Shown: in pieces, positions 7,660-26,676 of the stretch
How positions within the stretch are numbered: the stretch's first letter is position 1
How the letters are laid out: each line of letters starts with the position of its first letter
Assembly (NCBI GenBank): GCA_027604505.1
Contig: JADIIX010000020.1
Location: 186,001-218,896, forward strand
Direction: 5' to 3'
From: Gonapodya sp. JEL0774
Lineage: Eukaryota
DNA: 32,896 nt
The notes under the pieces: generated by a model
Told to the model about the DNA's origin: nothing
The model's database searches: none
Seen by the model: only the letters and a program-made list of their open reading frames with translations
Program-made: the position numbers and the translations under genes

Positions 7660-9099
7660 CTATTGCGGAGGCGATCCTGAGCCTTCGGATTCATTCTTCT
7701 CCCACAATTCTTTGGCTTTGGGAAGTAAGAACCGCCCTCCCTCCCATTGCTTACGGAACCACGGTGCGTAATTGCGCCATATACTGGCTCGGGAAGCCAA
7801 GACTGTCAAGAGTGTATCCACGGCGTCGCCTGGTTTGAGGTCACTCGGTTTGCTGGGAAACTGGAGGCGACTTCGAAGATTCAAAAGTGCACGACGCTTT
7901 TGAGCAATTACACGAGCCGGAATTGTCGGCATGACATTCTGGAGGAAGTTCTCTAGATCGCTTGTTTCGATGTTGAAAACAGCGGAATCCCAGTCCACGT
8001 ATCCCTCGTACGGAAGAATCAAGTGGTCGGCCATTATGATAGGAATGCATCCTGCCATAACTGAGGTGAATAGCCTTCGTGTGTCATCAGTATCGCCACG
8101 AGGACAGGGACAGAACGTGGATGATAGCATCGAAGTAGTGAAGTTAGATCCAAAGCCACGATCGGTGCCCAGGACGATGGTGCCCGGTACAGTGCGAAGG
8201 GCCTCACGAATTCTATCGCGAACCGAGAGAGCGTAGCGACGTTGGCCCATCATTATGAACGCAAGGATGGGTCGATCACGGTCAGGATGGAGAAGGGGAT
8301 CATTGGATTGAAGTTCCGTGAACTCCTCGTGCAGCTCCGGGTACGGTACAACTATGTTCCGAGAGTAAGTGTGGTAATCGAAGGCGAAAGACTCTCGGGG
8401 TGTCTCATTTTCTTTAGATGGCGGTGTGTAAAGGTGATATGAGAGGGAGATTCCAGTTCCTGAAAGCCCGCCCCAAATATTTGTCCATACAAAATTGTAT
8501 CCATGTGTGGCTAGAAATTCTGGTGAGCTAGACACCGTTTCCACGAGTTGGGATTGCGTAAGATGTTTGCATTCGTTGTTCGGGGTCGGTGGCCACTGAT
8601 CCAATTCCGCCGCACACCAAAGCGTCTGACACGTGGGAACGATGACTAGGTCAGCCTCAGAGATGTTGCTTGTGTAGCTGGGGTGGTGTGAGAGGGTTTG
8701 AGCCCATATCCACTCAAACGCAAAATGGGAATCGAATCCATCCTTATCGAGAAGCACTGATTTGATCTTCGCGTTGTGCTCGGTGCGTGCAAGTGCGTCT
8801 TTGACTAGCTGTGATACATCCCAAACGAAGAATTTCACGTTTGGAAACTGCTGTGTTGCGAGGAATACCGGACTGGTCTTGAGCGCAGAAGCAGGTAATG
8901 AGGACGTGGTGGTGGCAGGACCGAACCACGAAGAGATCTTTGCTGTGAAGGTGACTATCGCAACTCCCATCAAGGCGAAAATCTGTGCTCGGTGTCGGGT
9001 CACCCCACTTGTTGGAGACGGCTGTACAGTTCTGTTCGTGAACTGCACAGTCAACGAATAGCACGGACAATACCGAAGACATACCTTTTGATACAGCAT
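7660..9099 (-). CDS. Exostosin-like (GT47) glycosyltransferase, type II membrane protein
   Basis: N-terminal hydrophobic anchor (IFALMGVAIVTFTA); EADLVIVP, IVVPY and the GT47 signature MLSSTFCPCPRGD..TRRLFTSVMAGCIPIIMAD..ILPYEGYVDW. Probable in-frame 63-nt intron 9084-9022 (gtatgt..tacag). Confidence 0.85.
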   Translation of the reverse strand: MLYQKVCLRYCPCYSLTVQFTNRTVQPSPTSGVTRHRAQIFALMGVAIVTFTAKISSWFGPATTTSSLPASALKTSPVFLATQQFPNVKFFVWDVSQLVKDALARTEHNAKIKSVLLDKDGFDSHFAFEWIWAQTLSHHPSYTSNISEADLVIVPTCQTLWCAAELDQWPPTPNNECKHLTQSQLVETVSSSPEFLATHGYNFVWTNIWGGLSGTGISLSYHLYTPPSKENETPRESFAFDYHTYSRNIVVPYPELHEEFTELQSNDPLLHPDRDRPILAFIMMGQRRYALSVRDRIREALRTVPGTIVLGTDRGFGSNFTTSMLSSTFCPCPRGDTDDTRRLFTSVMAGCIPIIMADHLILPYEGYVDWDSAVFNIETSDLENFLQNVMPTIPARVIAQKRRALLNLRSRLQFPSKPSDLKPGDAVDTLLTVLASRASIWRNYAPWFRKQWEGGRFLLPKAKELWEKNESEGSGSPPQ

Positions 9100-9388
9100 G
9101 GATTCTGAGGCCAACTCTCTTCCAATGCTTCTTTCGGTATTTGGAGCGGTGGCGAGACTGTAATGTTATGATTGGCCCATCAAGAACTTGGAGTGGGTCA
9201 GCCGGCCATCTGACATGTTCTTCAACTCATCGTCCCATCAACAGCAATTTAACCAGAGCGCTCTGTGAACACTTTTTTCAGTGCATTAACGATTCCTAGA
9301 GGTGAATATTCGAGCATTCTTTGAGGATTAACGTTTGCAGTCTTCAACTCCTGTCGGGACTGTCAGTTCGTTCCCCCATCACAGACAG

Positions 9389-11929
9389 ATGCCACGCCAC
9401 CGCTATGACGATTCAATAATACCGCGCACTGAAGTCATGTCCAACGTTTCACGAGGACCTGTGTGGAAGGCTCGAGCATCGCGTCGTCGCCTCTTGGCAA
9501 TGCTCGCTATTACTCTCGGGGTTTACTTTGCATGTTTATGGTTGGGTTCGGAGGGTGAAAAGCGAGCCCATAATTTGTCTTCCCGCTCTGTGCAGAGTGA
9601 ACCAATGAACGATGACAGACCAGAAGGTCAGTCTCCGCTTGTGGCGGATGAACTCCACTTCTCCATCCCTCAAATTCACATACAGCCGCTCGGACAACAT
9701 GTGGATATCAAACCGGACCCACCTGTTAGAAGCGTTCCAGAAACGCGACCAGTTTACCGTGACCCGGTCACCGACCGATGGCCCATTTGTCCGTCGCAGC
9801 TCTCATTAGTAACTGCTTGCCAGAATCGCCACGATCATCTTCGCACCGCGCTAGCCTCGTGGATCCGCACTACGTCACCACTGAAGCAAATCGTCATTGT
9901 AGATTGGTCCTCGGAGCCCGGCCTGGAGTCTGTAGTGAAGGAAGTGCTTGAGGCTTGGGAGGATGACGTATACCAGGATCAAGACAAAATGAAATCGAAC
10001 AGTGACGAAGCACAAATGAAACAGTGTTGGGAACGTCCAAAGTTGATTCTGCTCCAAAGTTCGGGAGTCGAATCCGATATTCTGGCTGGTGAATCCAGCT
10101 TGGCCCTCCCTTGGATACTTTCCTGGGCCAACAATCTCGCAGCTTACGCTGCTACCATGCCCGAACTCTCGCGTGATGAATTCTCCCGTGGAATCGTCAT
10201 TTCCACAACCGATGCACACAAATACGAAGGGGGGGACCACACAATTCTCAAGCTTGATTGCGACGTAATTGTGCACCCAGATATAATCGACACTCTATCA
10301 GCGGCTGGTTGTCCATGTGGTAGAGCTCATGCTGATGGCCGAGTGTTGCCGCCAAACAGCTTTTTATCTGGCAACTGGCGAACAGCTTCTACTGAAAACG
10401 ACTTTCACCTCAATGGCGACTTTGCCGTTCGCGTCGCCGATTTTCACGCCATTCGTGGCTATGATGAAAGAATTCAGACCTACGGATGGGATGACAGTGA
10501 CCTGTACGAGCGACTGATGAGGTTGGGTGCTACTGGAGGCAACGGCACTAGGAAGGTTGATATTCCAGCTGGTTCTCTCACACACATCGCACATAGCGAT
10601 AGCGATCGAGTTTCTGGACGGGGTGGACGACGAAATTTGACGAACCTCGCGTTTGAGATCCTCCGTAATCGACTCTTGAGTGAGGCTGCCCCGGCATGGC
10701 CTGGGAACGTTACTGGATCTCGTTTCCGGCTGAGGATGGTGAATCCAGAAAAAGCATATTGTGGTGAAAATGGACGATGTTACGTGTTGCAGACTATTGG
10801 TGCCCAGTTGCTATCACACCCACCACCTCTCAAAGAGTTCGTATCAGAAGCCACACAACAGTCTATTGAGCTCACAGCCTATCGCACCACGCTTCGAAAG
10901 TATGGACTACTTGTGCCGCTTTCTTTCATGCAACTCCCGACATCCTATCTCTCTGCACTTCTCGGCACATTCACAATTGCTACACAAGGAATCACAGCCC
11001 TGGATGCTCGGCCCTCCTCTGTCCCTAAAGTTGCTGGCATTCTTACCATTGATGTGCAGCATGGATTATCAAATCGTCTTCGAGCTTTGGCGTCCGCAGC
11101 TTCAGTCGCGAAACAAGCGGGATGGCACCTGCGAGTTGTGTGGGTTCCGGATGCACACTGCGGTGCACGATTTGACGAGCTCTTCGAGGTCGGCGATCTA
11201 GATGTATGGAGCGAACCCATCGACCCCTTGGAGTGGAAAGCGGTTAAACCATTCACAAAACACTATTCGTACATGGACAGCGATGGCGGAAAAAGAGAAC
11301 CCATTGACACAATAACAGGGACTGACCCGGCCATTCGCCCGGCAACTTCTAAACAAACCTATCGTGTGCAGCAAGTGTATGTCAAAAGTGCATACCTTCT
11401 CAACCACACGGCGGGGATGAATTCAAAGGAAATAGGAAAGTTCCTCAGGTCTCTCACCCCCCGTCCATCCATCAGAAAAAAAATTGCGCTCATGAAAAAT
11501 AACTTCAGAGGCGAGTCGTATGTCGGAGTACACATACGAGCAACGCCACCGTTGGGAGAATTTGTTGGACTCCGGCCAGAAGATTACTCTGAAAAGGGTT
11601 GGAAGTCGCTGGAAACCGCGCGGCGTGCCACATCTGACGTGAACAAGTTTGTCTCTCGGCTTTCTGACAGTAAATCCGGTGTGTACTTATCGTCGGATTC
11701 ACCAATTGCGGTTCAAAAACTATTGGACAGACTGGGGCCAAGGGTTCGTTGGCTCGATAGTCAGGGCTGCATCAACCGATCAGCTCGATGTTTAGAGTAT
11801 GCAATAGCGGATCTCTGGGTGCTGGGTGGGGCGGAAAAACTTGTGGGGAGCTGGTGGTCTTCTTTCGGCGAGGTGGCTGGATATCTTGGCGGGATAGATG
11901 TTGATTATGTTGGTCGGACTGCTGACTGA
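9389..11929 (+). CDS. Intronless two-domain glycosyltransferase: TM anchor + GT-A/GT7C(galactosyltransferase)-like domain + fucosyltransferase-like GT-B domain (paralog 1)
   Basis: TM LLAMLAITLGVYFACLWL; IVIVDW, DxD motif KLDCD, GYDERIQTYGWDDSDLYERL (GT7C-like); GLSNRLRALASA, VGVHIR, YLSSD, DLWVLG..LVGSWWSSF (motifs of the GT11/GT23/O-FucT superfamily). Start may be 9389 or 9437. Confidence 0.8.
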   Translation: MPRHRYDDSIIPRTEVMSNVSRGPVWKARASRRRLLAMLAITLGVYFACLWLGSEGEKRAHNLSSRSVQSEPMNDDRPEGQSPLVADELHFSIPQIHIQPLGQHVDIKPDPPVRSVPETRPVYRDPVTDRWPICPSQLSLVTACQNRHDHLRTALASWIRTTSPLKQIVIVDWSSEPGLESVVKEVLEAWEDDVYQDQDKMKSNSDEAQMKQCWERPKLILLQSSGVESDILAGESSLALPWILSWANNLAAYAATMPELSRDEFSRGIVISTTDAHKYEGGDHTILKLDCDVIVHPDIIDTLSAAGCPCGRAHADGRVLPPNSFLSGNWRTASTENDFHLNGDFAVRVADFHAIRGYDERIQTYGWDDSDLYERLMRLGATGGNGTRKVDIPAGSLTHIAHSDSDRVSGRGGRRNLTNLAFEILRNRLLSEAAPAWPGNVTGSRFRLRMVNPEKAYCGENGRCYVLQTIGAQLLSHPPPLKEFVSEATQQSIELTAYRTTLRKYGLLVPLSFMQLPTSYLSALLGTFTIATQGITALDARPSSVPKVAGILTIDVQHGLSNRLRALASAASVAKQAGWHLRVVWVPDAHCGARFDELFEVGDLDVWSEPIDPLEWKAVKPFTKHYSYMDSDGGKREPIDTITGTDPAIRPATSKQTYRVQQVYVKSAYLLNHTAGMNSKEIGKFLRSLTPRPSIRKKIALMKNNFRGESYVGVHIRATPPLGEFVGLRPEDYSEKGWKSLETARRATSDVNKFVSRLSDSKSGVYLSSDSPIAVQKLLDRLGPRVRWLDSQGCINRSARCLEYAIADLWVLGGAEKLVGSWWSSFGEVAGYLGGIDVDYVGRTAD

Positions 11930-11996
11930 GGTTGGGCTATCATGCCGGGGACAGCGCAATGTAGAATAGTTCAGATGCTACATCATTTTGTTCAAT

Positions 11997-13499
11997 TCAT
12001 TCTATCGGCCGCTTTATCTCTTCAAGCAGGCGCAGTGCTATGCTACTAGCTTCAAGAGGATCTTTCGCTTCAAAAGCCTGCAGATTGTCTTGGTGACATT
12101 CCGGAGTTCCTTGGAACGCCGCCTCCCGGCACGAACGGATCTTCCCGTAAATGTTATCTATGTACACAACTGGCCGACCCAGCAATGTTGCGAAGATTGT
12201 TGCGTGCAGTCGATCTGTCACAACGATTCTGGCTTCCGACACGATTTGGTTGCCGAGAGCGATCCGCCGTTCCACCATATCCGTTTTATCGTAGCCTGGG
12301 TTCATCCACATGCGATCTGGGAGCTTCCAATCTCTATGTACGTATGTGATGTTCGCTTCGTCAAAAGCTCGCTCAACAATGTTCCAACCTCCGTGTTCAA
12401 CCCGAGTTTCGTGATCATTGCGCCCAAGAATAAGCACATCATAAATTGGAGAAGAGTCCGGGCTTATTGGCCCAACCATGAACGCCATATCAGGAACAAA
12501 CATTGAAGGTATCATCGGAAAATACTTTCTGGCGTTCTCAAGGGAGTCCTGAGAGCGCCAGGTCATTGTTAGTCTCTTCCTATGTCGCGACAAAACGACT
12601 GAATCATTTCTTGCGATATCCCAGTCGCGGTAATACATAGATTGGGGCATAATGATCATCGGAGTTTGTTGGAGAAGTTCAAGGAGAGAAAAGCGATTTT
12701 CATGCCAACTCCGCCATAGGTCTCCAAAGTTTCCGCCCCCTGGGAAAGAATATAGTGATATTCGACAGAGAGACGGCGATGGGGATGAGCCGCCAACGTG
12801 ATAGGTGAAATGTTCAAAGGTCATTCATGACAATATCGTTTTGAAAGCTATCGAAACTCCAAGTGTCTCACCATGAGCAAGAACAACAAACGAAGAGCCT
12901 CTGGAGCTCAGATTCTGCGCAAGTTGTTCCATATTGCAATCCAAACGGGCACCGTCGTGTGTGCACATTTCAACAATGTCTAGGCCCAAAATCCGGACCA
13001 ATCGCTGTTCGCCTCCCCTTCATAAACGAGTAGAGGTTACGAGGTGAGGTTGGCAAGAATGGGCATAAGGTCGGAGCGGAATTGTGGAACAGTTGGGCGG
13101 AAGAAGCACAAAGGTTAAGAACGTATCGACGCCCCCAAAAGCCATTTCACGTTATTACCAGATCCAGTTATCGCCAATGTTGTGATGTGCTGCCATGTCT
13201 GGCAAGAACACTTCTTTCGCATCCCCAAGTATTGATTTCATTCGTGCGATGATATCCCACCGCACCCGCTCGAGGCACTTCAATCGATTCCATTCACGAA
13301 GAGCTTTTGTCTCTAGTGCTGCCACTCTCCTGGCGCGGTGTTGTAGGGGGACGCCATTGTTCGGATATTGGGTGAAGTGCAGACGAGTCATCAGAGCGAG
13401 GACCACAATCCCAGAGAGAATAAGCATTTGCCATATCAAGCGAGCGCGACGCGGCGGAGAGCTTCTTTGAAGGAGATAAATATTCTCGTGATCCGACAT
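11997..13499 (-). CDS. Polysaccharide pyruvyltransferase (Pvg1/EpsI-like), type II membrane protein; exons 13499-13159, 13017-12872, 12739-11997
   Basis: Spliced product gives HHNIGDNWIWGGEQ, LAHGGGNFGDLW, MPQSMYY, PDMAFMVG, VVTDRLHATIFATLLG, DNIYGKI; N-terminal TM LIWQMLILSGIVVLALM. Confidence 0.9.
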
Positions 13500-14102
13500 T
13501 CGGGAGACTCCTTGGGCACCTGGGAAATCAGGGGCCGGGTGGATGAAGATGAAATTAATTAATTACGCTCAGATGACCCTATTGAGTCACGGTGCCCGCA
13601 AACCTTCATTGAAAGGAAAGACAAACTCATGCAGACCTAGTAGATATTCGCTTACAAGCTCCATGTGATACTGCGTATGGAGTTCACACAGGTGATTCCT
13701 GGAGGGGATTAAACAGCCAACCATTTTGGGACGTTTCCTAGAATGCGCTTCACTCAATTCTTGCGTGACTTTGCATCTTTTCCTTGAGAATTGGATAAAG
13801 CAAAAGTGCGAGAAAGTGGCGTGTGGTGAGTACTGAGAATTATCACTAAGAATGCACTGTTTCTATTACTATTGACTATACAGCCGGTAAGAAGTGTGTT
13901 CAGGGGAAACTGCAGTCTCCAAGGGTCTCAACACAAGAGATATCTGCTGATGAGACCCTGCCAAAATGACCCGCACCCCATAATATGCATCCGGCATCAA
14001 CTATTTATTTATCTCCACAATTCCCACCAAACTTCCTAAATTCAAGGACCAAGACTCCGGAGATCTAGTCCTGCTTCTATCCCATCGTTGGATCTCGGTG
14101 GA

Positions 14103-17100
14103 ATGCGCTTTTCATCGGACATGAAGGGCACGCTCCGATTCCTGATCATTCTTTTGAGCTGGTACGCAGCTACAACAATCACAGCCGCGTCAACCAAGCA
14201 TGCACTGCGACTCTCTCCGCGTCCCATCGCCCTTACATTCTCTCAATTCGCTATTTCGACCCTTCTCACAATTGTCGTGTTCCCAGCAGCTCGCCGACCG
14301 ACGAAACCTTCCAGCGCCGAGGTTGTGATTGGAACGGAAGATGATACTTTCTTTCACCGTCACGGCAAGGGATGGTGTTTTGGCCTTACCAGAATCTGTC
14401 TCCACAAAGCGTCGTCTCTACCACTGGGTTTGCTCCATTTCACTGCCCAGATTTTTAACCTCGTTGCGATCAACCAAATGCCAGTATCTCTGGTTCAAGT
14501 TACAAAGGCAGGTGTTGTGCTTGTCGAAAGCCTGTTCGGGTTTGTAACCACTTGTATCAGTCGCTCGCTCCTTTGTACACAGTTGTCGCGTCCAGCATCT
14601 TTTTCTCCCTCTCATATCCCTCAAAAGTGTACCGTGCGTTAATACCGGTGGTCCTCGGTGTGATGATTACCTGTGTCGACGGGTTGGACGATGTTTCAAT
14701 TCTGGGAGTTCTTGCGGCCCAAACCAGCTGTGTGTTTTTCGTGGCTCAGAGTCTTTGGACAAAACATTTGCTGAAGACGACGGGGTCATGTTTGTACTCA
14801 GAGAACATCGTTTCGGATCAAGTCTCAATGGTTTTGTTCGATACTTTCGTTGTGGGGACAGTCGCTTCAATCCCTCTTCTGACGCTGGAAGTCAACATTT
14901 ACAAATGCGATGTCCATGAATTTTCGTGTTTTTGGGAGGATTTTCAAAATGTTCGGAGACTGGTCCTTCTCAATGGCATATCGTTCTTTGTGCAGACCAC
15001 TTTAATGAGCATCATTCTAGAAGTGTCGAGTCCGGTTACGTATTCAGTGGCCAACCTCTTCAAGCGCTTGATTGTGATTATTGGCTGCATTTTCTTGGCA
15101 AATGAGAGTCTCTCGTGGACCCAGATTGTTGGCACCACTATGACGCTTGTCGGATTACGACTTTACCAAGTGAGTCATGTGTGCCAAGAAGTTGTACATC
15201 ATCTTAAATCGTACGCTTTGATGAACAGCTTGCTGCTTGGGATGTCAACCGCACCGAAAATCCCCCAGTTAACATCGCAAATCAGATGGTCAAGAATTCT
15301 CACGATTTGGGTGGAATTTGTAAGCGGACATGGATAAAGCGGACGTTGATTTCTCTCGCCACCGTTGCATCGGTGGCGTTGATCCATCCATCCGCTCGAG
15401 TTCCCCACTTACCACGGTTTCTTCGGCACACCGAAGGCACGGCAAATCAATCTTTATTGGACAGAGAAATACCAAGTTGTAAAGCTCCGGTATCGATTGT
15501 AACGGCCTGCAAGAACCGCCCCGATACGTTCGGTCGGGCGTTTGCGTCTTGGCTCCGGACGGACCTCACTCCGAGGTCAGTGGTAGTTGTGGACTGGGGA
15601 TCAGATTTGCCATTACTCTCCATAGCGGAAAGAGAACTGGTTCAGTGGGCCACGGAGCAAGCGCGACAGAATGCTTCATATACGAGTGACCGTGCGTGCA
15701 TGCAGAGAATGGACGTGACAGTTGTGCGTGCTTACAATGAAAGCTCGGAAGACTTGAAATGGACATTAACATGGGCGTTCAACTTAGGGTTCCGGGTGGC
15801 TGAGGATAAAAGGTTGAGGCTGCAGATGAAATCTAGCGAGACACCCCTTGCTTTCATTTCCGAGGGTAGTCCAGAAGATGTCGTCCTTAAGCTTGACTGT
15901 GACAACGCCTTGCACCCACGCTTTAAAGCCTTCTTTCCCTATTCGAATGAGTCAATGCACAGTACTTGGTCTACTGATTTCGCGCTGCCAGCCAACAGCT
16001 ACTTCTCAGGAAACTGGCGAACTGCGCAGGACGAAAATGAACGTCATTTAAATGGAGCTTTCCTTGCACGAAGTTCTGATGTCCACCGCGTTGGCGGATT
16101 TGACGAACGCATCCAAACTTACGGGTGGGACGACAGCGACTTGTTTGAACGACTCTCGGGTTCGACTGATGTCACCGAGCTTTCATTCAATACTTTGCAT
16201 CAACTGAAGCAGATTGACTTCCCTAGATTTGCTATACAACATATTCAACACGTGCGGTCAGACAACCTTGGATCACGCCACGGAAACGTCATCAACGCCA
16301 ATGCAGGGTTCGAAACACTCAAGAACATGATTCTCATTAATATGGTCCCAAAATGGAACAATACTGCGGCAAAATGTCAATTCACACCAATGAATCCCGA
16401 TCTCATCCGGCGTTTTGATTCACCTGCAAGGACTGTTACATTGAGCACAATAACGACATCTCCGTTGCGTTGTCCGATGGCACTGGACCAAGAAGTTACG
16501 CGGAACCAATATCGTGATGTTCTCACTACTGCATTTCATCAAACATTTTCCAAATTCGGCCTTGCGCCTGATGTGTTCTTTGACGTAGATTCCGAGTACC
16601 CCGCGCGACTTCTCCAAACACTAACTATTGCAACCAGACATAAGTCTCCCATATCTCCACTCGAACCTAATCCACCGGTTGTGGGCATTTTAACAGTGGA
16701 CGTTCAGCGGGGGCTTGCAAACCGGCTACGCACTCTGGCATCCGCAGCGGCGGTTGCAAGTGCAGTTGGTTGGCACCTACGAGTGATTTGGGTTCCTGAT
16801 AACCACTGCAAGGCAAGGTTCCGAGATCTTTTTCAGACAGGAACCATGGATGTTTGGGATGAGCCCGTGAGCACAACAGAGTTCGAGGCAACTGCAGAGT
16901 TTACTGAAAAGTACTCATACATGGATCGCGATGGCGGTTTGAGGACCCCAATTGACACAGAAAGCAGAACAGATCCATCTCAGTCGCCTTTGAAAGACCA
17001 CCAAATACATCGGCTTCGTCATATTTACATTAAAGCCGGTACCTACCTAGCTCACCCCGCTGGCGGACCTGATATGGGACGTTATCGCTTCCACCTTCTC

Positions 17101-17571
17101 TCATTGGAGCCGGTCGACCGCATTCGAAACATGATCAGCGAGGTTCAAAGTCGGTTTGAACAACCTTATGTTGGGGTTCACATGAGGTCCCTACCCCCAG
17201 AAAATGAAGTGGCTGATTTGCAGAGCTCCGATTACAAGTCCGAAACTTGGAAAAAATTGAAAGAATTCCGCAGTATGGGCTCCAGTCTGGAAGCATTTGC
17301 ATCTCGCTTGCCTTACAATGGAAATACTACTGTGTACGTTTCGGCGGACAACCCTCAGTTGGCGAAGGATTTCGCCAACAGACTCGGCTCAAAAGTGATA
17401 TATTTGGTCAACAAAGGATGCGTGGATCGGTCGGTTGTTTGTGTGTCGTATGCTTTGGCAGATCTTTGGATATTGGGTGGGGCGCGAGCATTAATCGGGA
17501 GTCCATGGAGCTCCTTTTCAGAGGTGGCAATGTCTTTGGCTGGAGTCCCCATGGACTTAATTTCAAACTGA
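14103..17571 (+). CDS. Predicted fusion: TPT/SLC35E-family transporter + TM + GT7C-like + fucosyltransferase-like domains (paralog 2); exons 14103-14507, 14561-15169, 15229-17571 (~1118 aa)
   Basis: TPT motifs PIALTFSQF, PVSLVQVTK|SLAPLYTV, SPVTYSVANLFKRLIVI. Phase-0 intron 15170-15228 (gtgagt..aacag) continues without a stop (LAAWDVNRTENPPVNIANQ) into ORF 15286-17571, which shares many blocks with 9389-11929. Domain calls are firmer than the fusion itself. Confidence 0.75.
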
Positions 17572-17957
17572 CTCACACGGCAACGAGCCAACCGGCTTGA
17601 GACATATACTGTTCGCTTTATACATCACAATGATTATTGATTGACAGTTCTTTCAGATAGTATCAGATTTAAATGTAGTAGCACGATTCGCTGAAGAACA
17701 TCCTCACACGCTCCTCGCTCGGTATCATCTGACTGCGGTCTACCGTGCGATGATGAAGACAGAGGGTTTTCGCGGTGCTGGTTTTGGAGGAGATAGGTTT
17801 CCTGTGTGCCACCATGTGTTATTAGAGATTGGCCTGCAGTGCACCATTTGTACACACAAAGCTTCGCCCAAGCAACAACGGCTGATGACAGGAAAGTCTC
17901 AATATTTTCACTTATCAAGGCCTAGCCTTTCTTTTGGGTAATCTCCTAAACTCTCCA

Positions 17958-19610
17958 ATGAGCTTGTCAAGAACCAATGTTCGTTCAGGTTTTGGGGACC
18001 GATATCACTACAGGAGGAAGACTTCCGAACCACCGCCTGAGAATCATCACCGATCCGTGGGATCGCTCAGCCGCCATCTTAGCGTCTCCACTGAGCTGCA
18101 CTATCCGCGAGCTGCTGAAGGTCGCAATTCTCGTCCAAGTTCTCCCTCACCTCCCTACTCGACCCCATTTCATCCTCCTCCTGAGTCTACCATTGCACAC
18201 AATCCTTTTCGGGAACCTGTAGCTTCAGGTTTTTTGTGGACGTCTCCTGTCCCAATTATGCCTCCTGAGGTCTGGGAGCATGTTTTCTCCTTTTTGACTT
18301 TTCGAGCGCTGTTCGCCATCAGACTTGTTTCCAAGAAGTGGATGGCTCTTGCCGACATTGGAGTCAATGCCAAATGGAGACGTGAGGGATGGAGTCTTAT
18401 AGTTCGACTGGACACTTTTGGCAGGAAATCAGGAATGGGACACCTTCAACTCATCCACATTGATGGTGTGAGTGCTTGTATTTGTCAACCTTATATTGTT
18501 ATTATACCCTAATGTCTTATGATATAGGTTCGGTGGCATTTTCGGCCTAGTGCTCCATTTTTGCTCAACCACCTTCCAATCGGTACAACACTCAGATGGA
18601 GGTGTTGGATGGTTCCCGGACTCGCTGGCGCTTCCGCGCTGCCTGACGACTCTTCATTCCACGTTGCGGGTATGCCGAGTAGTACTGATTTGCGTGGTGG
18701 TCGCCAGGTTGCGGAATCCGATATACGTACGGCATTCAATGTTGAGGGTGGCGATGATGAACCAGCGTCTAGGCAAGGCGTGCTTTGGCGCTATCCCGCA
18801 GACACATCTTTTCTTTTCAAGATTAGAGTTGAGAAGTCATCAGAAGATTCTCGCGATGTTTTCGTGGATGGATTCGTGTGCACGCCCGGATTTCTGTTCA
18901 GTGGATCAACTGATGTCTCCCACTTTTTCGGACTAAACTCAACCGGCCTTCCACATGTCTCACGCTCTTCGTCGTCTGGGACATCCTCCCTTGCATCAAT
19001 CTCTGTCCCTTCTCCGACAAATCCCCATCGTTTCCAACAACCGCTCTATGACTCTGCTCTCGCCGACTTTGTTCTTCGTACTGCTGAAAGTACTATTGAG
19101 AGCCTCGACGCTTCGCTGTTTCTTTCTGATGATGCTGTTGCAGTTTGGCTTGCTCGGGCCGCTCTTGGAGATCGCGATGATGCTGCGCTACCTCATGTAA
19201 TTGCGCACTATGCTTGGACGAAAGAGCTCTTATCCGTGTCTCGTGATGTGCTGGGTCAACTCATGGAGCGGCATCGATTTCCCACGGACTGGGGTTGTGT
19301 AGCACCTGCACAAGCAGTGGCATCTCTATTGGAGCAAAACTACGGGTATAGACGGAGACTATACTCTTCCCTACGTCGGGTTCGATTTCTTGTAGATGGT
19401 CGAAGCTGGGTCGGAGATGATACTGACGGAAATTGCTCGAAGCGTGCCGAGTGCAAATACCCTGCGAGTACTATATCAATTGGGAGAGCACTGGTCGCGG
19501 ACATGAAACGGCGAAACGACGGTTTGCTGGCAATAAAGCCGTATTTGGCCGGTGAGCTTGCTCGCGTAGTGGAGGAGATTGTGAATAAGGTTGGGTCGAT
19601 GTCGGCTTAG
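17958..19610 (+). CDS. F-box protein; exons 17958-18467, 18528-19610
   Basis: F-box motif MPPEVWEHVFSFLTFRALFAIRLVSKKWMALA; phase-0 gtgagt..atag intron joins ORFs 17934-18512 and 18561-19610; C-terminal region unrecognised. Confidence 0.8.
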
Positions 19611-19917
19611 AGGGTTTACTTTTTATTGTGGTCAATTGTAGAACGTACTCCGCACAGAGGGCGCACTACGTATTGAATAGGGTTTATCCTATATTACATG
19701 CATCCATATTTAAGAATCCGGAGCAAAAGCTTACAGTAAGATCGATCAGTCCAGCTGGCACTCCTCTGTGTGAAGTCCATTAGTCCCAGAGACGTTGACC
19801 AGTAACACGACGAAATCGAAGCAGTTGTTTAATATATATGTAAGATGGATCGATGTTGACTCAAGATTTGCTACGAAATGTTTTAGATTGGCCGGGTTAA
19901 GTACATTCAGGTAGCGC

Positions 19918-21413
19918 CTAATGCCACCCGTCAAAGGTAACGTTGCAGTAATCTGCACTACCAAAATATCGTGCTGCTCTGCCGATATCAAATCTGTGTT
20001 TGTACTCCGCAATTGCTTCATCCCTCCCAAAGTGGTGATCCTCGAGTGCCATGGAATCCAAGAGGCAAAAGGTTCCATCTAGGAACATTTTGCGGAGTAC
20101 AGGGTACTCAGCACCTTCAACGTCCATTTTGACGATTCTAGGAAAAGTAAAATGAACTAAAGTGCACAAAATAACGGGTAAGAAAACCAGACGTGTGGAG
20201 AAACACTCACACATAATCGTCCGGGTGAACGTACTCGCGGATGAAAGAAGAGAAGTCGATCATGGCCACCTACGACCACAGAATTAGCACCGAAAGTCAC
20301 GTTGACCAGAGTATGTAGTCCCTCGCCCACTCCCACTCCCGCAACATTCGGTACTCACTTCAACTTTGGTGCGGTTTGCACCCAAACCACCCCAGTCCAC
20401 CACACTCGAGCCCCAGCTGGGAAGTCCTTCCTTTGAGCCATGATTAGGATCATCAACATAGAATGTTTGCGGTGTAAAATTGTCCGATACACATGCGTCA
20501 AAGTACTGGGTTATGGTCGATTGTTGTGAGTGAGAAGTTAGTACATAGTCGAATCACGGTGAAGTGCAATGCTTGCCGTCTCACAGTAAAGTCCAGCTTC
20601 TGAGCAGCATCCAGCAGCCGTTCGCGCAAGGCGGGATTGCATTCAAAACCAATTTTGACAAACTCTGCCGCATCTGGGTGGCCTTTCACGAAGCCATACA
20701 TTGTGTCTCCAACACTGAGAGAGCAATACGTCAGGGCAGAACAAAAAGTGCTTTCGACAAATCTTACTTCATCCCGAGGTCGAACCAGAACTTCTGAATG
20801 GGTGAAACACACCGGAGGTGAGCGGAGCAGTTTAGAAGGAACCCGCGAGTGCTTGTCAAAGCGTACTTCTGCTACGTGGCTTCACTACACAAAAATTACT
20901 TACTCTCGGTTTGCCATCCGCAGAAGGAATTGGTTCACCCTTGATTGTGCGCGTGGAGTCGTGAAGTGGAATAGGCCATGTCGGGCGGGGCTGCACCGGC
21001 TTTGTTGGCTCCACTACTTTGCTGAGCTCTGTCTGCTTGGGCCTTACAGCCGCGTCGAAGACATTCCAGCACTCCGCTTCGAGATTGGGGTGGGGTGCAC
21101 GAGGTATTAGATTTGGTGGTGTGGACTGGGCTTGGGCAAGGCATTCTAGCAGGACAGAGCGAGGTTTTTCAAGAGCGAGAACGATGGATTTGGTGGTGTT
21201 GGTGGTGGCGAGAGAAAGATTTGTGAAGTTGATATGCTGGTGAACAAAGAAGTTGAATTAGACCGATTCGTGGAAAGGAATAGAGCTTCCGATCGAGAAT
21301 AAACGTACCGATAGTGTTGCAATCACTATCACGGTCAACCCTACGCAGGTCAGAGTCTTCCACGAGAAGCGTAGGTTCGAGGAAGGACGGGAAGGAATGG
21401 GCGCGGGGGTCAT
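19918..21413 (-). CDS. FkbM/Methyltransf_21-like SAM-dependent methyltransferase with N-terminal type II membrane anchor and Pro-rich stem; multiple short exons
   Basis: Exon 1 21413-21309 (MTPAP..LTCVGLTVIVIATLS), exon 2 21236-20904. Then spliced KFWFDLGMNVGDT, GFECNP, IDFSSFIREYVHPDDY, IVKMDVEGAEYPVLRKM, ALEDH; stop 19918-19920. Exons 1-2 are not in the ORF track. Confidence 0.8.
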
Positions 21414-21752
21414 TGTGACGGCGGATGGCACGCGATGGGCTACGCTGTATATTGGCGCTTGATTTTAATAGAGGTATTCACCGGGTTTGGTTGACATGAA
21501 TTGTGATGGCGCGTTTGCCCAGGCCCTGCTCATCGACGATCAATATGAGGCCACAGAGGGGTAATGCTAATAAAAAGTTGTATCGCTTAATGTGCGTATT
21601 AACGGGATGAAAAACATCGGATGGCTGGTTCGTAGAGACCACTATAACCAATCAGTCTCGCCCAACAACTAGTGTTCACTGATTGGCAATTGTTACTTGT
21701 TGCAGAGTGTCACCCCTTGACACGTAGCGAGAAGAAACCAACATTGAATGAA

Positions 21753-21806
21753 TAGCGAAAGATTTAATGGGATGAAAAGTAGCGATAGATTTAATGGGGT
21801 GAAGAG
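21753..21806 (+). repeat. 27-bp imperfect tandem duplication, intergenic
   Basis: tagcgaaagatttaatgggatgaaaag / tagcgatagatttaatggggtgaagag. Confidence 0.8.
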
Positions 21807-22165
21807 TAGTAGGCCGCATGGAGGACGGACAGCCTGCCAACTACGATACTTGAGAAACTGAACATGACTTGTATTCATTTGGCATCGGATGAGGTCTTGA
21901 GATCAACGAAGACAATCACTCCAGCCAGCAAGCACGGTTGATAAGACCGGTGCTTCATGAGTCGGCAGCCAGCAATCCGACGCTAGTGCGGGGAACAATC
22001 GGATACATGCATGATGTTTCTCGAAGTTCCAGGTTTTACGAGGGACACTATTATGGTATTCTCCCTGTTGAACATTCAGTAGGTGCAGTTACTACGAAAG
22101 TGCTATAGGCCAGCGTGCCATCACATAAATAGAAATTGGAAGCTCTGAACGTACTTCGAACTTTA

Positions 22166-25074
22166 CTACGTTGTACCCCCCAATTTTCTCTCTTCCGATA
22201 ATCTTTCGAATCCCCTCTTAAACTCTTCGTGATATTTTACTAGCGATGACTTTATATCCGGCCTTCCAGCAAAAGCGCGACTGAGTAGCATTTTGACGTA
22301 GGAGAAGTCATCGTTGTTTGGATCGAGTAACGCCCCCCCGCCGCGGTAGAGCTCAAAGCTTCCTGGACCAACCTGCACATAGAAGAAAAATTACAAACTA
22401 GCTGACTGCTAGTCCAAGAGGATCTTTAAAGATACCCACATGTGCGGATATCATTCTGTAGAGAAAGTCATCCAGCTCAAACAGGTTGGTAGTGTTAAAA
22501 TCGCTCCTCCAATCATAACGTCGGTTTCTTCCGCTGGGTCCATTGATCATCTCTCCAGGCTTGATCAAGTTTGCGAGTTCCGGAATTGACGTTGTGTTGG
22601 GGTACCCTGGAGTGCGCGCGATACTCCTCGAAAGATACTTTTCGTCGTACTCAATTAGCGTGAGAAGCCTTTTGTCCTCTTCCGACTCGGGAAGTCGCCC
22701 AAAAGCTCTCTGGAAGCGCTCAGGTGTCAATGCCGTGACTAAGTTGGACGTAATAGATGTTAAGTCGTCCCCAACCGATAAGTCCAACACACTACGAAAC
22801 GTTCCAGCAGTTGCGGAGATATGGCACATCGAAAATCGGGGCGCTTTCATATCACTAACCCTGAGGCAGAGGTTAAAAGTCAGCGATCGGAGAATCCTGC
22901 TGTGAGAAACAGCGACGCGTACCGATCGACGTAGACCTTGTCCTTATTCGCTTTCAACCATTTCTCAATGTTCAGAAAATAATTGCAACCCAAAGGGAGA
23001 AAGTCCAAATCTCCCATAATCAGCCTATCATTTTCTGCGAATCGCGTCCAAGAGCCCGCAAATATTCTCTGCAACGCACTCTGCTGACCTGAGTCATGGA
23101 CAGCGAGTGGAACTTTGTGGAATTCGAATCCGCCGTTGGATAGGTATGATACTACCTCACGACCAGGCCAAGAAGTATTAAACGGTCGCAAGTCCTCCAC
23201 AAAGAGAAAAATGGGGACAATGTCACAGCGGCGCCACATCTGAATTGTCAAACCGCAAATAAGTCTCAGTAAGTTTGCGACCACAAGTCGACACAGGGAT
23301 AGCTTGCACTCGCCTCCGCCGCAAATGGTGCCCAGTATACAAACAAATCGATCATGTTCCCTGACAGAATCGCATAGGTCTGCCCTCCTACATCCTTGCT
23401 GGATGAACGCCCATCAAACAATGTATTGCCGGTGGATTGTGCTCCTCCCAACCCAATGATTGCTCCTGCCATGTAAATTCCCAAAAGCCCCGTCATTCCG
23501 ACAGACATGACTTTGAAGGGCAAGCCTTGCCTTGAGATTCTCATCATTGCCCAGGTTAGTTGACTTTCTTTTAATAGAGATACTGGCTTCGTTTCACTTG
23601 ATACCGACAAGTCGGATGCCGACGGTGTGGCATACAAAGCAATCGCAAAAGCCACGATGGCAACACTGAATGCGAACAAGAAGCTCACGTGAAGGCCAAA
23701 TAGGTAAGCCGAGCATACAACAGTAATAAGGATAGAAATTGAGGAGGCAAAGTTTTTCAGAATATTGTCTGTGGAATTCCAAAGTCATGATCTTAATCCA
23801 AGCGAGGAACCAGTGTGAAACCGTACGCGCAACCATTTACCAGCATACTTCATAATAACGGCCACAAGAAGACCTCCACACGCTTGGAGACAGATAGCAG
23901 CCCAGGTCCAGATAGTGTAACCTTGGAAAAATCCCCCTTCGGAGTAACTCTTGCCGTCGAACCACAGCACTCCAATAAAGAAACCAGGGACGACCGAGAA
24001 CAGCGAAAGCTGCACATTGCGTATCCATAAATCGGTGCTATTGGCTTTGATCACTTTCTCGAGATACACCCCAGCGAACCCAGATATGACGCTTGCGAGA
24101 CACACTTGAAGGAATCCAGCGATTGCTCTGGAGGTAAACGGACCTCCAACATCCGACCCAGCGTCACCACGTGTGGTTGAGCGTTGCGCAAGGAAGACTC
24201 CCAATGCAAGAATCATCAGTGAAATCCACCTGATAACTGATAAATGTCGTTTCAAGATAAAAACAGAGAACAGAGCAGTCGTGAGAAGCTACAAAATATA
24301 AAGAATGCACTCAAAACTTTTCAAAATGACAATGACAAAAGTTTGAACTTACCTTAAGCTGGTTGGTCATCTGATGCACAGCGGGACTCAGAGTTGTAAG
24401 CCCGGCGACCAAAAGGTTGCTCTGAACAAGATACAAAATTCCCGGTATCGTCAGCTCCATCCATTGGGATTCCACCCCAAACGCTTCGTTGTAGATCCTG
24501 GAAAGAATCCACCCGGGGCCAGCTGCATGCGGTTTAGCCCGTGACTGATTCACCGCACAGACGGCGATCGATATGAAAAGCTTTATCAGCTCAGAAGAGA
24601 CTAGTGTGTGAGAACAGTTGTTAAAAGAACAACTCACGTACACTAGCAACACTACTTACCGACCACTGTCGAGTTGAGAAACTTCGTCCCCGGTCGGGTC
24701 TGGGCGAATTTCAGTACAAGGGTGTGACAAGCGGCCTGCATCACTAGTGCGGCTAGTGAGAGCCATCTAATCCACCAGTTATGATTTCTGACAGGCTCTC
24801 CTGTGAGATCGTGAAAGGAATTGAACATAGGGGATGCAAGTGTTGCTTGACTAGATGAGATGGGATTGCCTTTGCAACGAGAGCGGGAACAATAACACGG
24901 GAGATGTAATGCAAGAATCAAAACAACAGATAGAAATTCCCTACCATGAATTCCTTTGAGCGCCCCATCGTCAGATTGGCCGAGCGATGTGACAGGTGGA
25001 ACGCTGACCATCGTCGAGCTCTTGAGCACTGCTGGCGATCGCGCAGACGCGATCTTGCCCGCGCTTTCAATCAT
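22166..25074 (-). CDS. Predicted fusion: SLC35A (UDP-galactose/UDP-GlcNAc-type) nucleotide-sugar transporter + TM + uncharacterised DxD-containing luminal domain; exons 25074-24945, 24800-24660, 24600-24353, 24288-23841, 23768-23314, 23239-22923, 22860-22440, 22372-22166 (~788 aa)
   Basis: SLC35A motifs STVVVSSELIK, IPGILYLVQSNL, QLK|LLTTALFS, SGFAGVYLEK, LWIRNVQL, GGLLVAVIMKYADNILKNFA. Within exon 23768-23314 the last transporter helix runs without a stop into a linker, a further TM and a soluble domain (YWAPFAAE|MWRR, IMGDLDFLPL, FSMCHISA). Confidence 0.8.
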
Positions 25075-25210
25075 TCTTGCTGCTTTAGTGATCGTATTTA
25101 TGGTCTCCAATGAGCGCTCGCGTCAGTTACCCTCAATATATTCGGATGATGAGCTACAATCCGGCTGTGGCCACAATTTCAATATTACACAGATCATTGG
25201 CAAGAGAGAC

Positions 25211-26581
25211 CTATCTTTTCGAAATCATCTGGTTTACAATAAGTTTGTTGGACATGACATCTACAGGATACGACATTTCCACATGCCACTGCAGGTCTGG
25301 CATGCAGCATTCCGTACAGTTGAGACTTTTCTGGCACTCATCGTCACTGTAGGCTGCCGCGAACGAATCTAAAACAGCGTTTACAGATGTCGGAAACCCG
25401 TTTGTTTTCAGGTTCGTGATGACGCGTGAGGAAAAGGGTTGCTCATTAGCTCTGTTCAAGAGTTCTTTTAGTCAGAGAATCGGCCTCATAGGATTGTAAT
25501 GCAACACAGACTCACATAATGCAAAGCTCCATCGTCGCTCTGGCCAGATGAATCGTCTTGGAGTGAATTATTCGCACCAGTCGTTTTACCATGAGGGTGT
25601 GATCGTGAAGTCTGCGCTCATTTGGATTGCTCGGGTTATCAACCCAGGGTTCATTTTTTCCTGGTCGAAATCTCATTGAATATTCGGTCGCGAGACGCCC
25701 GACTTTCAAAGTTTCTTTGTGACTTAAATCCCAAAGAGCGTGAAGTAAAGTGGCTTGGTCGTTAGCTGTCTTTCCTTGCCTATGAATCTCCAGCCATTTA
25801 CGGTGAATTGAAAGGAATCCGGGAGATTTGCGGTACACCATGACTCCATTATCCGGGAGAAATGATCCAGTCGAATCGTGAGAGTTGACAGCGAGATCGA
25901 CCTCGGTAGGAAACTCTTCAAAAAGCTCCAGTAAGCTGCCACAACAAAATGTGTCACCATCCACAGCGAGAGTTATTGCAAACGGGGAGTGATAAAGGAG
26001 CTCGAGTCTCGTCGTCCATTGATGATTAGCGACGCTACTGTTTCTCATTCCTTGAGGAATGTCCAGCACATGTGAAAATATATGCCGGTCCATAAATAAG
26101 TCCGGTGTTGACGTGAAGATAGCAATCGGCATTCCCGGGTTGTGGAGGCGGTAAGTTGCGGCGGACATCTTCACCATTTTAACTAATTCAGTGAGGGACG
26201 AACCGTCACCGTACGCAAAGAAGAGAATTCCTGTTGTTTGACACACGAATAGCGCACAAGAGCGTAGTTAAGGACCTGATTCTTCTTCTGTTCGATGAGC
26301 AGTGACCCACCAGCGTCCAGATCAAGCCAAGGATCCCTCCGTCGCCTCTCTTCTCTGTTCCCGAAATCAGCGCGGTCTGGACACCAATTTCGCGGTCGTT
26401 CGACCATCGCATTCATTTCTTCATCAGTGCTCGCGTGAAAGGCCCGCAAATGGTTATCATTGAGTACTTCAGCGGGTTTCCTTGTCAGAATGACGGAGAC
26501 GAAGACGGCAACAGAGAAGGCGAGGACAAGAAAGAAAGCGCGATTACGGTTCGAGAGCATCGAGTGGAATAGTGACGACAT
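25211..26581 (-). CDS. GT-A nucleotide-diphospho-sugar transferase-like type II membrane protein; exons 26581-26311, 26230-25516, 25451-25211
   Basis: TM AFFLVLAFSVAVFVSVIL; GILFFAYG, SPFAITLAVDGDT (DxD), DNGVMVYRK, NDQATL; phase-consistent GT-AG introns of 80 and 64 nt. Confidence 0.72.
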
Positions 26582-26676
26582 CCTCGGATATTGATGCGTG
26601 GATTGGAAGATGGGTTAGGGTTAGCTTGGCGTGATCTGGTGTTATGTAATGTCATAATTTTTATGCGCGAGTTCTT

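Follow-up and report, generated by a model that had tools for sequence, protein, structure and literature searches.

Gonapodya sp. JEL0774, an aquatic fungus of the chytrid type, carries, on contig JADIIX010000020.1, a gene in which a nucleotide-sugar transporter domain of the SLC35A family is joined to a domain with a DxD motif. The gene lies on the minus strand at 25074-22166 of the window, i.e. the whole stretch of 32,896 nucleotides (nt) that was analysed. The pairing of a putatively uridine diphosphate (UDP)-type SLC35A domain with an unnamed, predicted glycosyltransferase (GT) family of the GT-A fold is a new variant of a recurrent architecture. The reading that is favoured here, by a modest degree, is that the gene makes a single Golgi protein of 811 residues with 11 membrane passes, which would import a UDP-sugar and transfer this sugar to a glycan in the lumen.

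Gene model and junction exon

When the eight exons of the gene (Table 1) are joined, an uninterrupted frame of 811 codons followed by a stop results, and the 811-residue product is identical to the NCBI protein KAJ3342139.1 (hypothetical protein HDU93_003355, Gonapodya sp. JEL0774; hereafter P0001). The open frame is real and the gene model is sound; with it, the proposal of the initial annotation that an SLC35A transporter passes into a DxD domain within exon 23768-23314 was confirmed. As the NCBI gene model was itself predicted from this DNA, it gives no independent proof of the transcript. An alternative in-frame acceptor at 24801, in exon 2, would remove 23 residues.

The junction exon encodes the stretch DNILKNFA..IALYA (residues 346-391) and then a stop-free tail. 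The other two frames of 23768-23266 are likewise poor in stops (two and one, respectively); hence, the open frame is by itself no strong signal, and the evidence for the join is, at the level of sequence, homology at both ends of this single exon. As the end of the transporter, the eleventh hydrophobic helix (helix 11) and the start of the domain all lie in it, the join is independent of any predicted intron. The complete layout consists of a ten-helix SLC35A transporter, a 40-residue tail, helix 11 and a 340-residue domain, and the three exons downstream of the GC-AG intron (see below) are in phase. A stand-alone SLC35A chain ends in a short cytosolic tail after transmembrane helix (TM) 10; here, 420 more in-frame residues follow, and the protein was classed as a fusion. 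The GC content and the GC content at third codon positions are alike in the two halves (0.50/0.54 and 0.48/0.53), giving no sign of recent foreign origin.

It is very unlikely that an assembly error deleted a stop or shifted the frame in the linker, so that two ordinary genes only appear joined. There is a single assembly, and the protein forms a single-member cluster. Even with a stop restored, however, less than 90 nt would be left between TM10 and the ATG at 23547 for a tail, a terminator and a promoter; moreover, the window is without N and the contig is 218,896 nt long.

Transporter half

Residues 77-391 match the Pfam family Nuc_sug_transp (PF04142) with 282 bits, against a cut-off of 27, over model positions 5-314 of 315. 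They align to residues 9-327 of the mouse transporter for cytidine monophosphate (CMP)-sialic acid (CST; PDB 6oh2/6oh4). In the structure model, ten confident helices were found within residues 73-392, a block in which the predicted local distance difference test score is mostly above 85, together with an extra short helix at 142-154. The residues K120, K196, N287 and K350, equivalent to mouse K55, K124, N210 and K272, are kept, and each is invariant in all 44 relatives compared. The pair Tyr214 and Ser261, specific to SLC35A1, is absent, the corresponding residues being S291 and A339. Tyr214 weighs heavily for CMP-sialic acid, as stated in the accessible text of PMC6709370. A339 is the residue of UDP-type transporters at the mouse S261 position, and serine at position 291 occurs in 21 of the 44 relatives, with glycine in nine. 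Together, A339 and S291 fit a UDP donor, i.e. a putative UDP-type site. The protein is like known SLC35A transporters (mouse CST; SLC35A2 for UDP-galactose; SLC35A3 for UDP-N-acetylglucosamine) in its full PF04142 domain, ten helices, conserved lysines and asparagine and UDP-type alanine, and unlike them in its 420 extra C-terminal residues with helix 11 and an enzyme domain.

A tree of 45 rows was built from P0001 and 44 of the 53 other long SLC35A proteins described below, leaving out eight redundant vertebrate rows and one partial row. The transporter grouped with the chytrids (95/85), and its branch is long and of unsure exact place. Given this placement, the transporter half is most likely a diverged duplicate of a native gene. 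Six residues set P0001 apart from all chytrid relatives that can be compared at the position concerned (5/5 or 7/7), namely A89, H92, S174, N193, L272 and N351; some of these positions line the substrate cavity, while the nucleotide contacts are kept. An active transporter with shifted cargo may be inferred from this pattern, with relaxed constraint as the alternative. Because these six positions differ from the chytrid relatives examined, complementation of a UDP-galactose transport mutant may fail for a reason unrelated to the fusion. Chytridiomycota are predicted to make UDP-linked glucose (Glc), N-acetylglucosamine (GlcNAc), galactose (Gal), galacturonic acid (GalA), galactofuranose (Galf), glucuronic acid (GlcA), rhamnose (Rha) and xylose (Xyl) (PMC8092308). 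Gonapodya is not mentioned in the accessible text of that paper, which therefore does not help to narrow the choice of donor.

Enzyme half and its relatives

No Pfam match was found for residues 392-811 at E up to 1. The DxD motif is D574-L-D576; the strand at domain residues 100-105 ends on D574, and both aspartates are invariant among the 18 relatives of a 19-row alignment. The domain was modelled on its own with the help of this alignment (predicted template modelling score 0.80), the full-length model having no alignment depth in the enzyme half and being unreliable there. The domain model has the Rossmann-like alpha/beta GT-A fold, as seen in the model itself and in its matches. With Foldseek, GT24 and GT8 lead at E about 2e-4 (UGGT, glycogenin, WbbM and LgtC). 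Viral GT8-like and other GT-A proteins are also matched. The matches listed by Foldseek and VIA are mostly GT-A enzymes and related nucleotidyltransferases. With VIA, GT8 and GT24 tie with other GT-A families in a field of GT-A enzymes and nucleotidyltransferases, which share the fold (Z 12.5-9.9; best Z 12.5 with a root mean square deviation of 3.7 over 215 aligned residues). The domain thus resembles the retaining GT8/GT24 enzymes, such as the catalytic domain of UGGT, in its GT-A core, in the DxD after a beta-strand and in its best Foldseek matches. It differs from them in identity (7-15%), in a TM-score of about 0.4 and in the lack of a Pfam match; furthermore, CHSY3-CHPF, KfiA, GlcAT-P, WrtF and Fringe rank as high or higher in VIA. 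In the Atlas, none of the 30 nearest clusters has a common Pfam family, the nearest named ones being GT8 and Nucleotid_trans at 0.94. A match to a beta-1,4-GalT7 profile (E 0.46) is weak and was not taken as evidence of family.

GT-A enzymes have a C-terminal metal-binding histidine and an acidic acceptor-site motif. In the Gonapodya domain, the residues that are kept include H743 and D675, candidates for these two features, found in 50 and 49 of 52 relatives, respectively. Also kept are W499, R555, D574 and D576 (52 each), P579, C615 and R717 (51 each) and W720 (50); the conservation of DxD in the viral set is partly due to the construction of the search pattern. Judged by sequence and structure models, the domain very probably represents a glycosyltransferase family of the GT-A fold that has no name. 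What had been called an unknown DxD domain in the initial annotation is therefore described here as a DxD-bearing, transferase-like domain with a predicted luminal position.

A full HMMER scan gave 16 matches at E up to 0.001, namely P0001, 14 relatives and one false match (P0007, 1792 residues), which lies on fibronectin-type repeats and was dropped. None of the 14 relatives is a fusion. Pfam GT families were matched by none of 15 phmmer hits and none of four viral members scanned, and NCBIfam and PHROGs gave no GT family for the 19 alignment rows (the P0001 domain and 18 relatives). The closest full-length relatives are type II proteins of about 350 residues with one N-terminal helix (4/4), one of them from the rotifer Adineta steineri. 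The Gonapodya domain groups with four type II proteins in a quick tree of 53 rows, where the Shimodaira-Hasegawa-like approximate likelihood ratio test gave 99. A word search for short relatives of the domain found none among 933 candidates.

A narrower alignment search returned 52 viral loci (L002-L053), with the match near position 5001 in most. The viral family members have about 230-300 residues; two loci (L004 and L009) carry the domain at the end of a 550-residue open reading frame (ORF). When a profile was built from 39 distinct viral proteins alone, P0001 was recovered at E 1.5e-14, and no transporter-only protein was found at E up to 10 (86 proteins). Of 21 viral loci sampled from the 52, 18 have a glycosyltransferase among the five nearest ORFs, and the other three have an FkbM methyltransferase. 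FkbM and pyruvyltransferase genes, which are part of the Gonapodya cluster, also adjoin viral members of the family. A contig scan of genomes with the bacterial-type subfamily gave 25 pattern matches, none of which was confirmed, and phage and plasmid records held no match to the domain. The transporter half may hint at the donor of this family, which is without a name in Pfam, NCBIfam and PHROGs and is present on 52 viral contigs and in eukaryotes.

Splicing around the junction

The intron 23313-23240, downstream of the junction exon, has a GC donor, and GC donors are uncommon. The donor is the best consensus match among all GT and GC sites of its exon, and the intron scored 11.4 bits in a leave-one-out test, compared with 6.0-17.4 bits for the 20 introns of the window. 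The splice matrix is crude, as 13 of these 20 introns were chosen automatically by consensus, and four of 84 coding-exon background windows likewise reach 11.4 bits. On splicing, WAPFAAE is joined to MWRRC, and the product aligns gap-free to FAPLAVEAWRRC-type stretches of the relatives. The Pro-x5-Trp spacing of the family is restored by removal of the intron (Trp499 in 52 of 52 relatives, Pro493 in 43 of 52). On this sequence evidence the GC-AG intron is regarded as real. If it were unused, translation would stop at 23266 and give a transporter that carries an additional helix and a stub, the downstream exons being dead or separate. Apart from the rarity of GC donors, the evidence makes this case, which the initial annotation had itself raised, most improbable: the conserved residues flanking the intron align without a gap only when it is spliced, it scores 11.4 bits, the invariant residues of the family are kept in the downstream exons, and the neighbouring transporter gene described below needs a second GC donor at 14508.

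The C-terminus of SLC35A transporters is cytosolic, according to the accessible text of PMC6508934. If the tail after TM10 is likewise cytosolic, helix 11 would leave the enzyme on the luminal side, separated from the membrane by about 25 residues, in the usual type II layout. Residues 420-476 show this Golgi layout of short tail, one helix, stem and luminal domain, with the orientation being predicted.

Within the linker, the stretch 23597-23531 resembles an intron; if spliced, it would yield a 414-residue free transporter ending at 23493, with a normal 23-residue tail. An alternative can thus be framed in which two separate proteins are made, wholly or in part: the transporter is ended by this splicing, the enzyme is translated from M420 or M433 (in-frame methionines ahead of helix 11), and the fusion is a minor or absent isoform. 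The CTAAC branch-like motif, the AAG acceptor, the length of 67 nt and the GC content of 39% are similar to those of the gene's true introns. This type of pattern was found six times in 10,561 nt of coding exon (0.57 per kb), and only about 0.07 would be expected in the 120-nt linker. On the other hand, with the same crude matrix, the donor scored 0.0 bits and the whole stretch 3.2 bits, less than any of the 20 window introns and less than 62 of the 84 background windows. For a free enzyme, a promoter would also have to lie in the sequence that encodes the transporter, and the last transporter exon would overlap the first exon of the enzyme. The two-protein alternative is therefore considered unlikely. 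With its good branch motif and poor donor, the stretch may possibly act as a minor splice switch to the free transporter.

A second, candidate join in the same cluster

The initial annotation had counted two fusions from different transporter families in this locus. This count was upheld, with the fusion other than the SLC35A one being less directly shown. The candidate consists of a triose phosphate transporter (TPT) domain (PF03151), with a weak match to PDB 5y78, joined to a type II GT7C-like/NodZ-like protein (Table 1). The join opens to 1118 codons only if the intron 15170-15228 is spliced, and three of four acceptors tried keep the frame; if the intron is retained, a stop follows after 393 residues, giving a free transporter. 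The intron scored 14.3 bits, above all 84 coding-exon background windows, and the gene also needs the GC donor at 14508. A tblastn search of P0001 against the TPT exons gave no match. The transporter families differ (PF04142 vs PF03151) and the enzyme halves are unrelated; hence, as far as sequence comparison tells, the cluster probably holds two joins that are independent of each other, the SLC35A join and the TPT join.

Similar fusions and complexes

The architecture search for Nuc_sug_transp with a C-terminal extension, which the initial annotation had proposed, was carried out by scoring the best 7,997 candidates. It yielded 53 other long SLC35A proteins, two of which have the same layout. 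These two (P0065 and P0066, both from JGI) consist of an SLC35A domain, a short tail, one extra helix and a soluble LicD-like domain, and they form a separate branch of the transporter tree. Their enzyme half is LicD/fukutin-like (Pfam E 0.057, below the cut-off; Atlas 0.95), and the P0066 cluster has three full-length members out of four. They share order and predicted topology with the Gonapodya fusion and differ from it in transporter branch and in enzyme half. The transporter halves of P0065 and P0066 are near-identical and their enzyme halves very different. An SLC35A domain with one extra helix and a LicD-like domain was noted in four JGI proteins altogether (P0065, P0066, P0078 and P0079). 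When metagenomes were scanned with P0066, a single distant transporter was found, which stands alone and is no fusion. P0025, with a GT71 domain before SLC35A and no helix between, was set aside as a likely gene merge. SLC35A with Mo25 was seen in two Synchytrium species (P0027, P0028 and P0086), probably as conserved neighbours merged by annotation.

In a single sentence, PMC5082852 mentions a GT92 with a TPT domain in a glycan cluster of Ostreococcus. As in Gonapodya, a nucleotide-sugar-transporter-type domain and a glycosyltransferase form one polypeptide with an FkbM methyltransferase nearby; unlike in Gonapodya, the transporter is of the TPT family rather than SLC35A, and the enzyme is GT92 rather than the unnamed family. 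In mammals, SLC35A2 and SLC35A3 are complexed with MGATs, B4GalT1 and B4GalT4 (accessible text of PMC9368800 and PMC6453868). These complexes likewise place an SLC35A transporter beside a type II transferase in the Golgi membrane; they are non-covalent and multi-partner, whereas Gonapodya has a single chain. Functional coupling in the mammalian complexes is only suggested in the part of PMC9368800 concerned, and a natural single-chain version allows a direct comparison of fused and split forms. Apart from the passing mention in PMC5082852, the literature covered, with most subscription journals outside its scope, yielded no work on a naturally occurring transporter-transferase fusion or on the Gonapodya gene. 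The transporter-transferase architecture seems to recur in microbes and appears unstudied, the Gonapodya form not being unique.

Proposed mechanism and its alternatives

In the favoured reading, the single frame that joins the SLC35A transporter and the GT-A domain is the established step. The transporter would exchange a UDP-sugar for uridine monophosphate, and its changed positions would suggest that this sugar differs from the UDP-galactose-type cargo carried by the ordinary chytrid copy. In the lumen, DxD and His743 would bind Mn2+ and the diphosphate, and the enzyme would extend a surface or secreted glycan to whose assembly the nearby GT47, GT7C/NodZ-like, pyruvyltransferase and FkbM genes contribute. 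UDP needs a luminal diphosphatase before export, and so the fusion protein would form no closed cycle. The join may have been kept for fixed co-expression, a 1:1 ratio and local donor supply, the weakest step, in which a sealed hand-over would not be required. Its probable origin is a merger between a duplicate of the native transporter gene and the type II enzyme gene immediately downstream.

Several observations weigh against this reading. The same fusion was found in no other genome in the protein searches with exon 6, the word search, the full HMMER scan and the long-SLC35A survey; hence, conservation of the join is not established. A longer protein search with exon 6 returned only P0001 (100% identical) among 24 candidates. 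Gene models of long chytrid SLC35A proteins frequently run into unrelated neighbouring genes (Mo25 in two cases, CFAP58, molybdenum-cofactor sulfurase-type domains, and GT71 without a helix), so the NCBI model counts for little, and several of these joins look, from their sequences, like annotation merges. Helix 11 is rich in glycine, its hydrophobicity is no more than moderate and its prediction is poor, and the linker holds the intron-like stretch described above. The transporter branch measures 1.51, compared with 0.1-0.4 for other chytrids, and departs at 8 of 63 conserved columns, compared with 0-3; judged from the alignment, these departures would fit relaxed constraint equally well as a new specificity. 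Finally, as the top structural matches are tied, neither donor nor acceptor can be read from the fold.

The strongest competitor is that the fusion is made and is a tolerated by-product of tight packing, a stop having been lost between co-oriented neighbours, with the topology fitting by chance and the halves working independently. The gap between the upstream gene and the fusion gene is 136 nt, and residues 420-811 resemble an intact type II gene: the distance from start to Trp is 80 (from M420) or 67 (from M433), compared with 67-74 in four free relatives. The enzyme of the TPT fusion has a free paralogue nearby, and the SLC35A fusion was found in one genome only, in the searches made. It is harder to explain in this way that two joins with different transporter families lie within one 18-kb cluster, that the same layout arose separately elsewhere (P0065/P0066; the single-sentence mention in PMC5082852), and that several cavity positions changed while nucleotide contacts stayed. 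Overall, a tolerated merge was rated as clearly less probable than a working import-and-transfer protein. It is a live alternative because of the tight packing, because each of the two enzyme halves has its own start Met and the look of an entire type II gene, and because the fusion was found in no second genome. For this reason, selection for channelling, which the initial annotation had suggested to have acted repeatedly, was not retained; the two independent fusions were.

A bolder picture is that of a Golgi glycan assembly line, in which fusion arose twice from two transporter families, each transporter was retuned to pass its own nucleotide sugar to its tethered enzyme, the domain founds a new glycosyltransferase family that extends across viruses, rotifers and a fungus, and splice choices at both junctions may switch between free and fused forms. 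This was judged rather improbable. The weight of the finding is held down by the recurrence of such fusions in other microbes and by the SLC35A case resting, as a predicted gene model, on one genome.

Cluster and features of the window

The DNA of the window is eukaryotic, and its introns are short. A glycan gene cluster of about 19 kb (7660-26614) comprises GT47, pyruvyltransferase and FkbM genes, two transporters and several transferases.

Table 1 Features of the SLC35A fusion gene and of the surrounding cluster (window coordinates)
Feature	Position	Strand	Remarks
Exon 1	24945..25074	-	ATG at 25074; low-confidence N-terminal tail
Exon 2	24660..24869	-	Transporter start, TM1; acceptor as in NCBI model
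Exon 3	24353..24600	-	TM2-TM4
Exon 4	23841..24288	-	TM4-TM8; N287, S291, A339 (mouse CST N210, Y214, S261)
Exon 5 (junction exon)	23314..23768	-	TM9-TM10, tail, 11th hydrophobic helix, stem, first 25 residues of GT-A domain
Linker, residues 392-431	23512..23631	-	Predicted cytosolic; ATG ATG at 23547 (M420), resembling start of type II enzyme gene
Cryptic intron-like stretch	23531..23597	-	GTGAAA donor, CTAAC at 23559, AAG acceptor; 67 nt, 39% GC
Predicted 11th transmembrane helix, residues 432-450	23455..23511	-	Mean hydropathy 1.81; model helix 437-449, low confidence
GC-AG intron	23240..23313	-	74 nt, phase 0; exon end GAG, donor GCGAGT, acceptor TTCAG; if retained, frame stops at 23266
Exon 6	22923..23239	-	Invariant W499, R555; DxD (D574, D576) at 23011-23003
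Exon 7	22440..22860	-	Conserved C615, D675-E676, R717, W720, H743
Exon 8	22166..22372	-	C-terminal helices and stop
GT47 gene	7660-9165		
GT7C-like long ORF	9332-11929	+	Free-standing single ORF, own N-terminal helix, weak NodZ match
Candidate TPT fusion	14103..17571	+	PF03151 transporter (14103-15169) and type II GT7C-like/NodZ-like protein via intron 15170-15228; 1118 codons
F-box gene	17889-19610	+	Mid-cluster; no evident link to glycan genes
Polysaccharide pyruvyltransferase and FkbM methyltransferase genes	within ~7.6-26.6 kb cluster		
Upstream type II-like gene	25211-26614	-	DxD motif; main exon without Pfam match

The free-standing GT7C-like ORF and the enzyme ORF of the TPT fusion (15208-17571) are paralogues, with 39% identity over 723 columns. 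The upstream DxD gene, whose stop lies 136 nt before the fusion ATG, was compared with the fused domain and found to be unrelated. An identical 8-residue peptide on the minus strand at 25545 (off-frame of the upstream gene) and at 24981 (exon 1) was attributed to chance, as 4 of 20 shuffles give one. The cluster is flanked by carboxylase-like and aminotransferase-like ORFs, which we take from their motifs to be ordinary metabolic genes. The cluster suggests that this early-branching fungus makes a modified glycan that has not been described.

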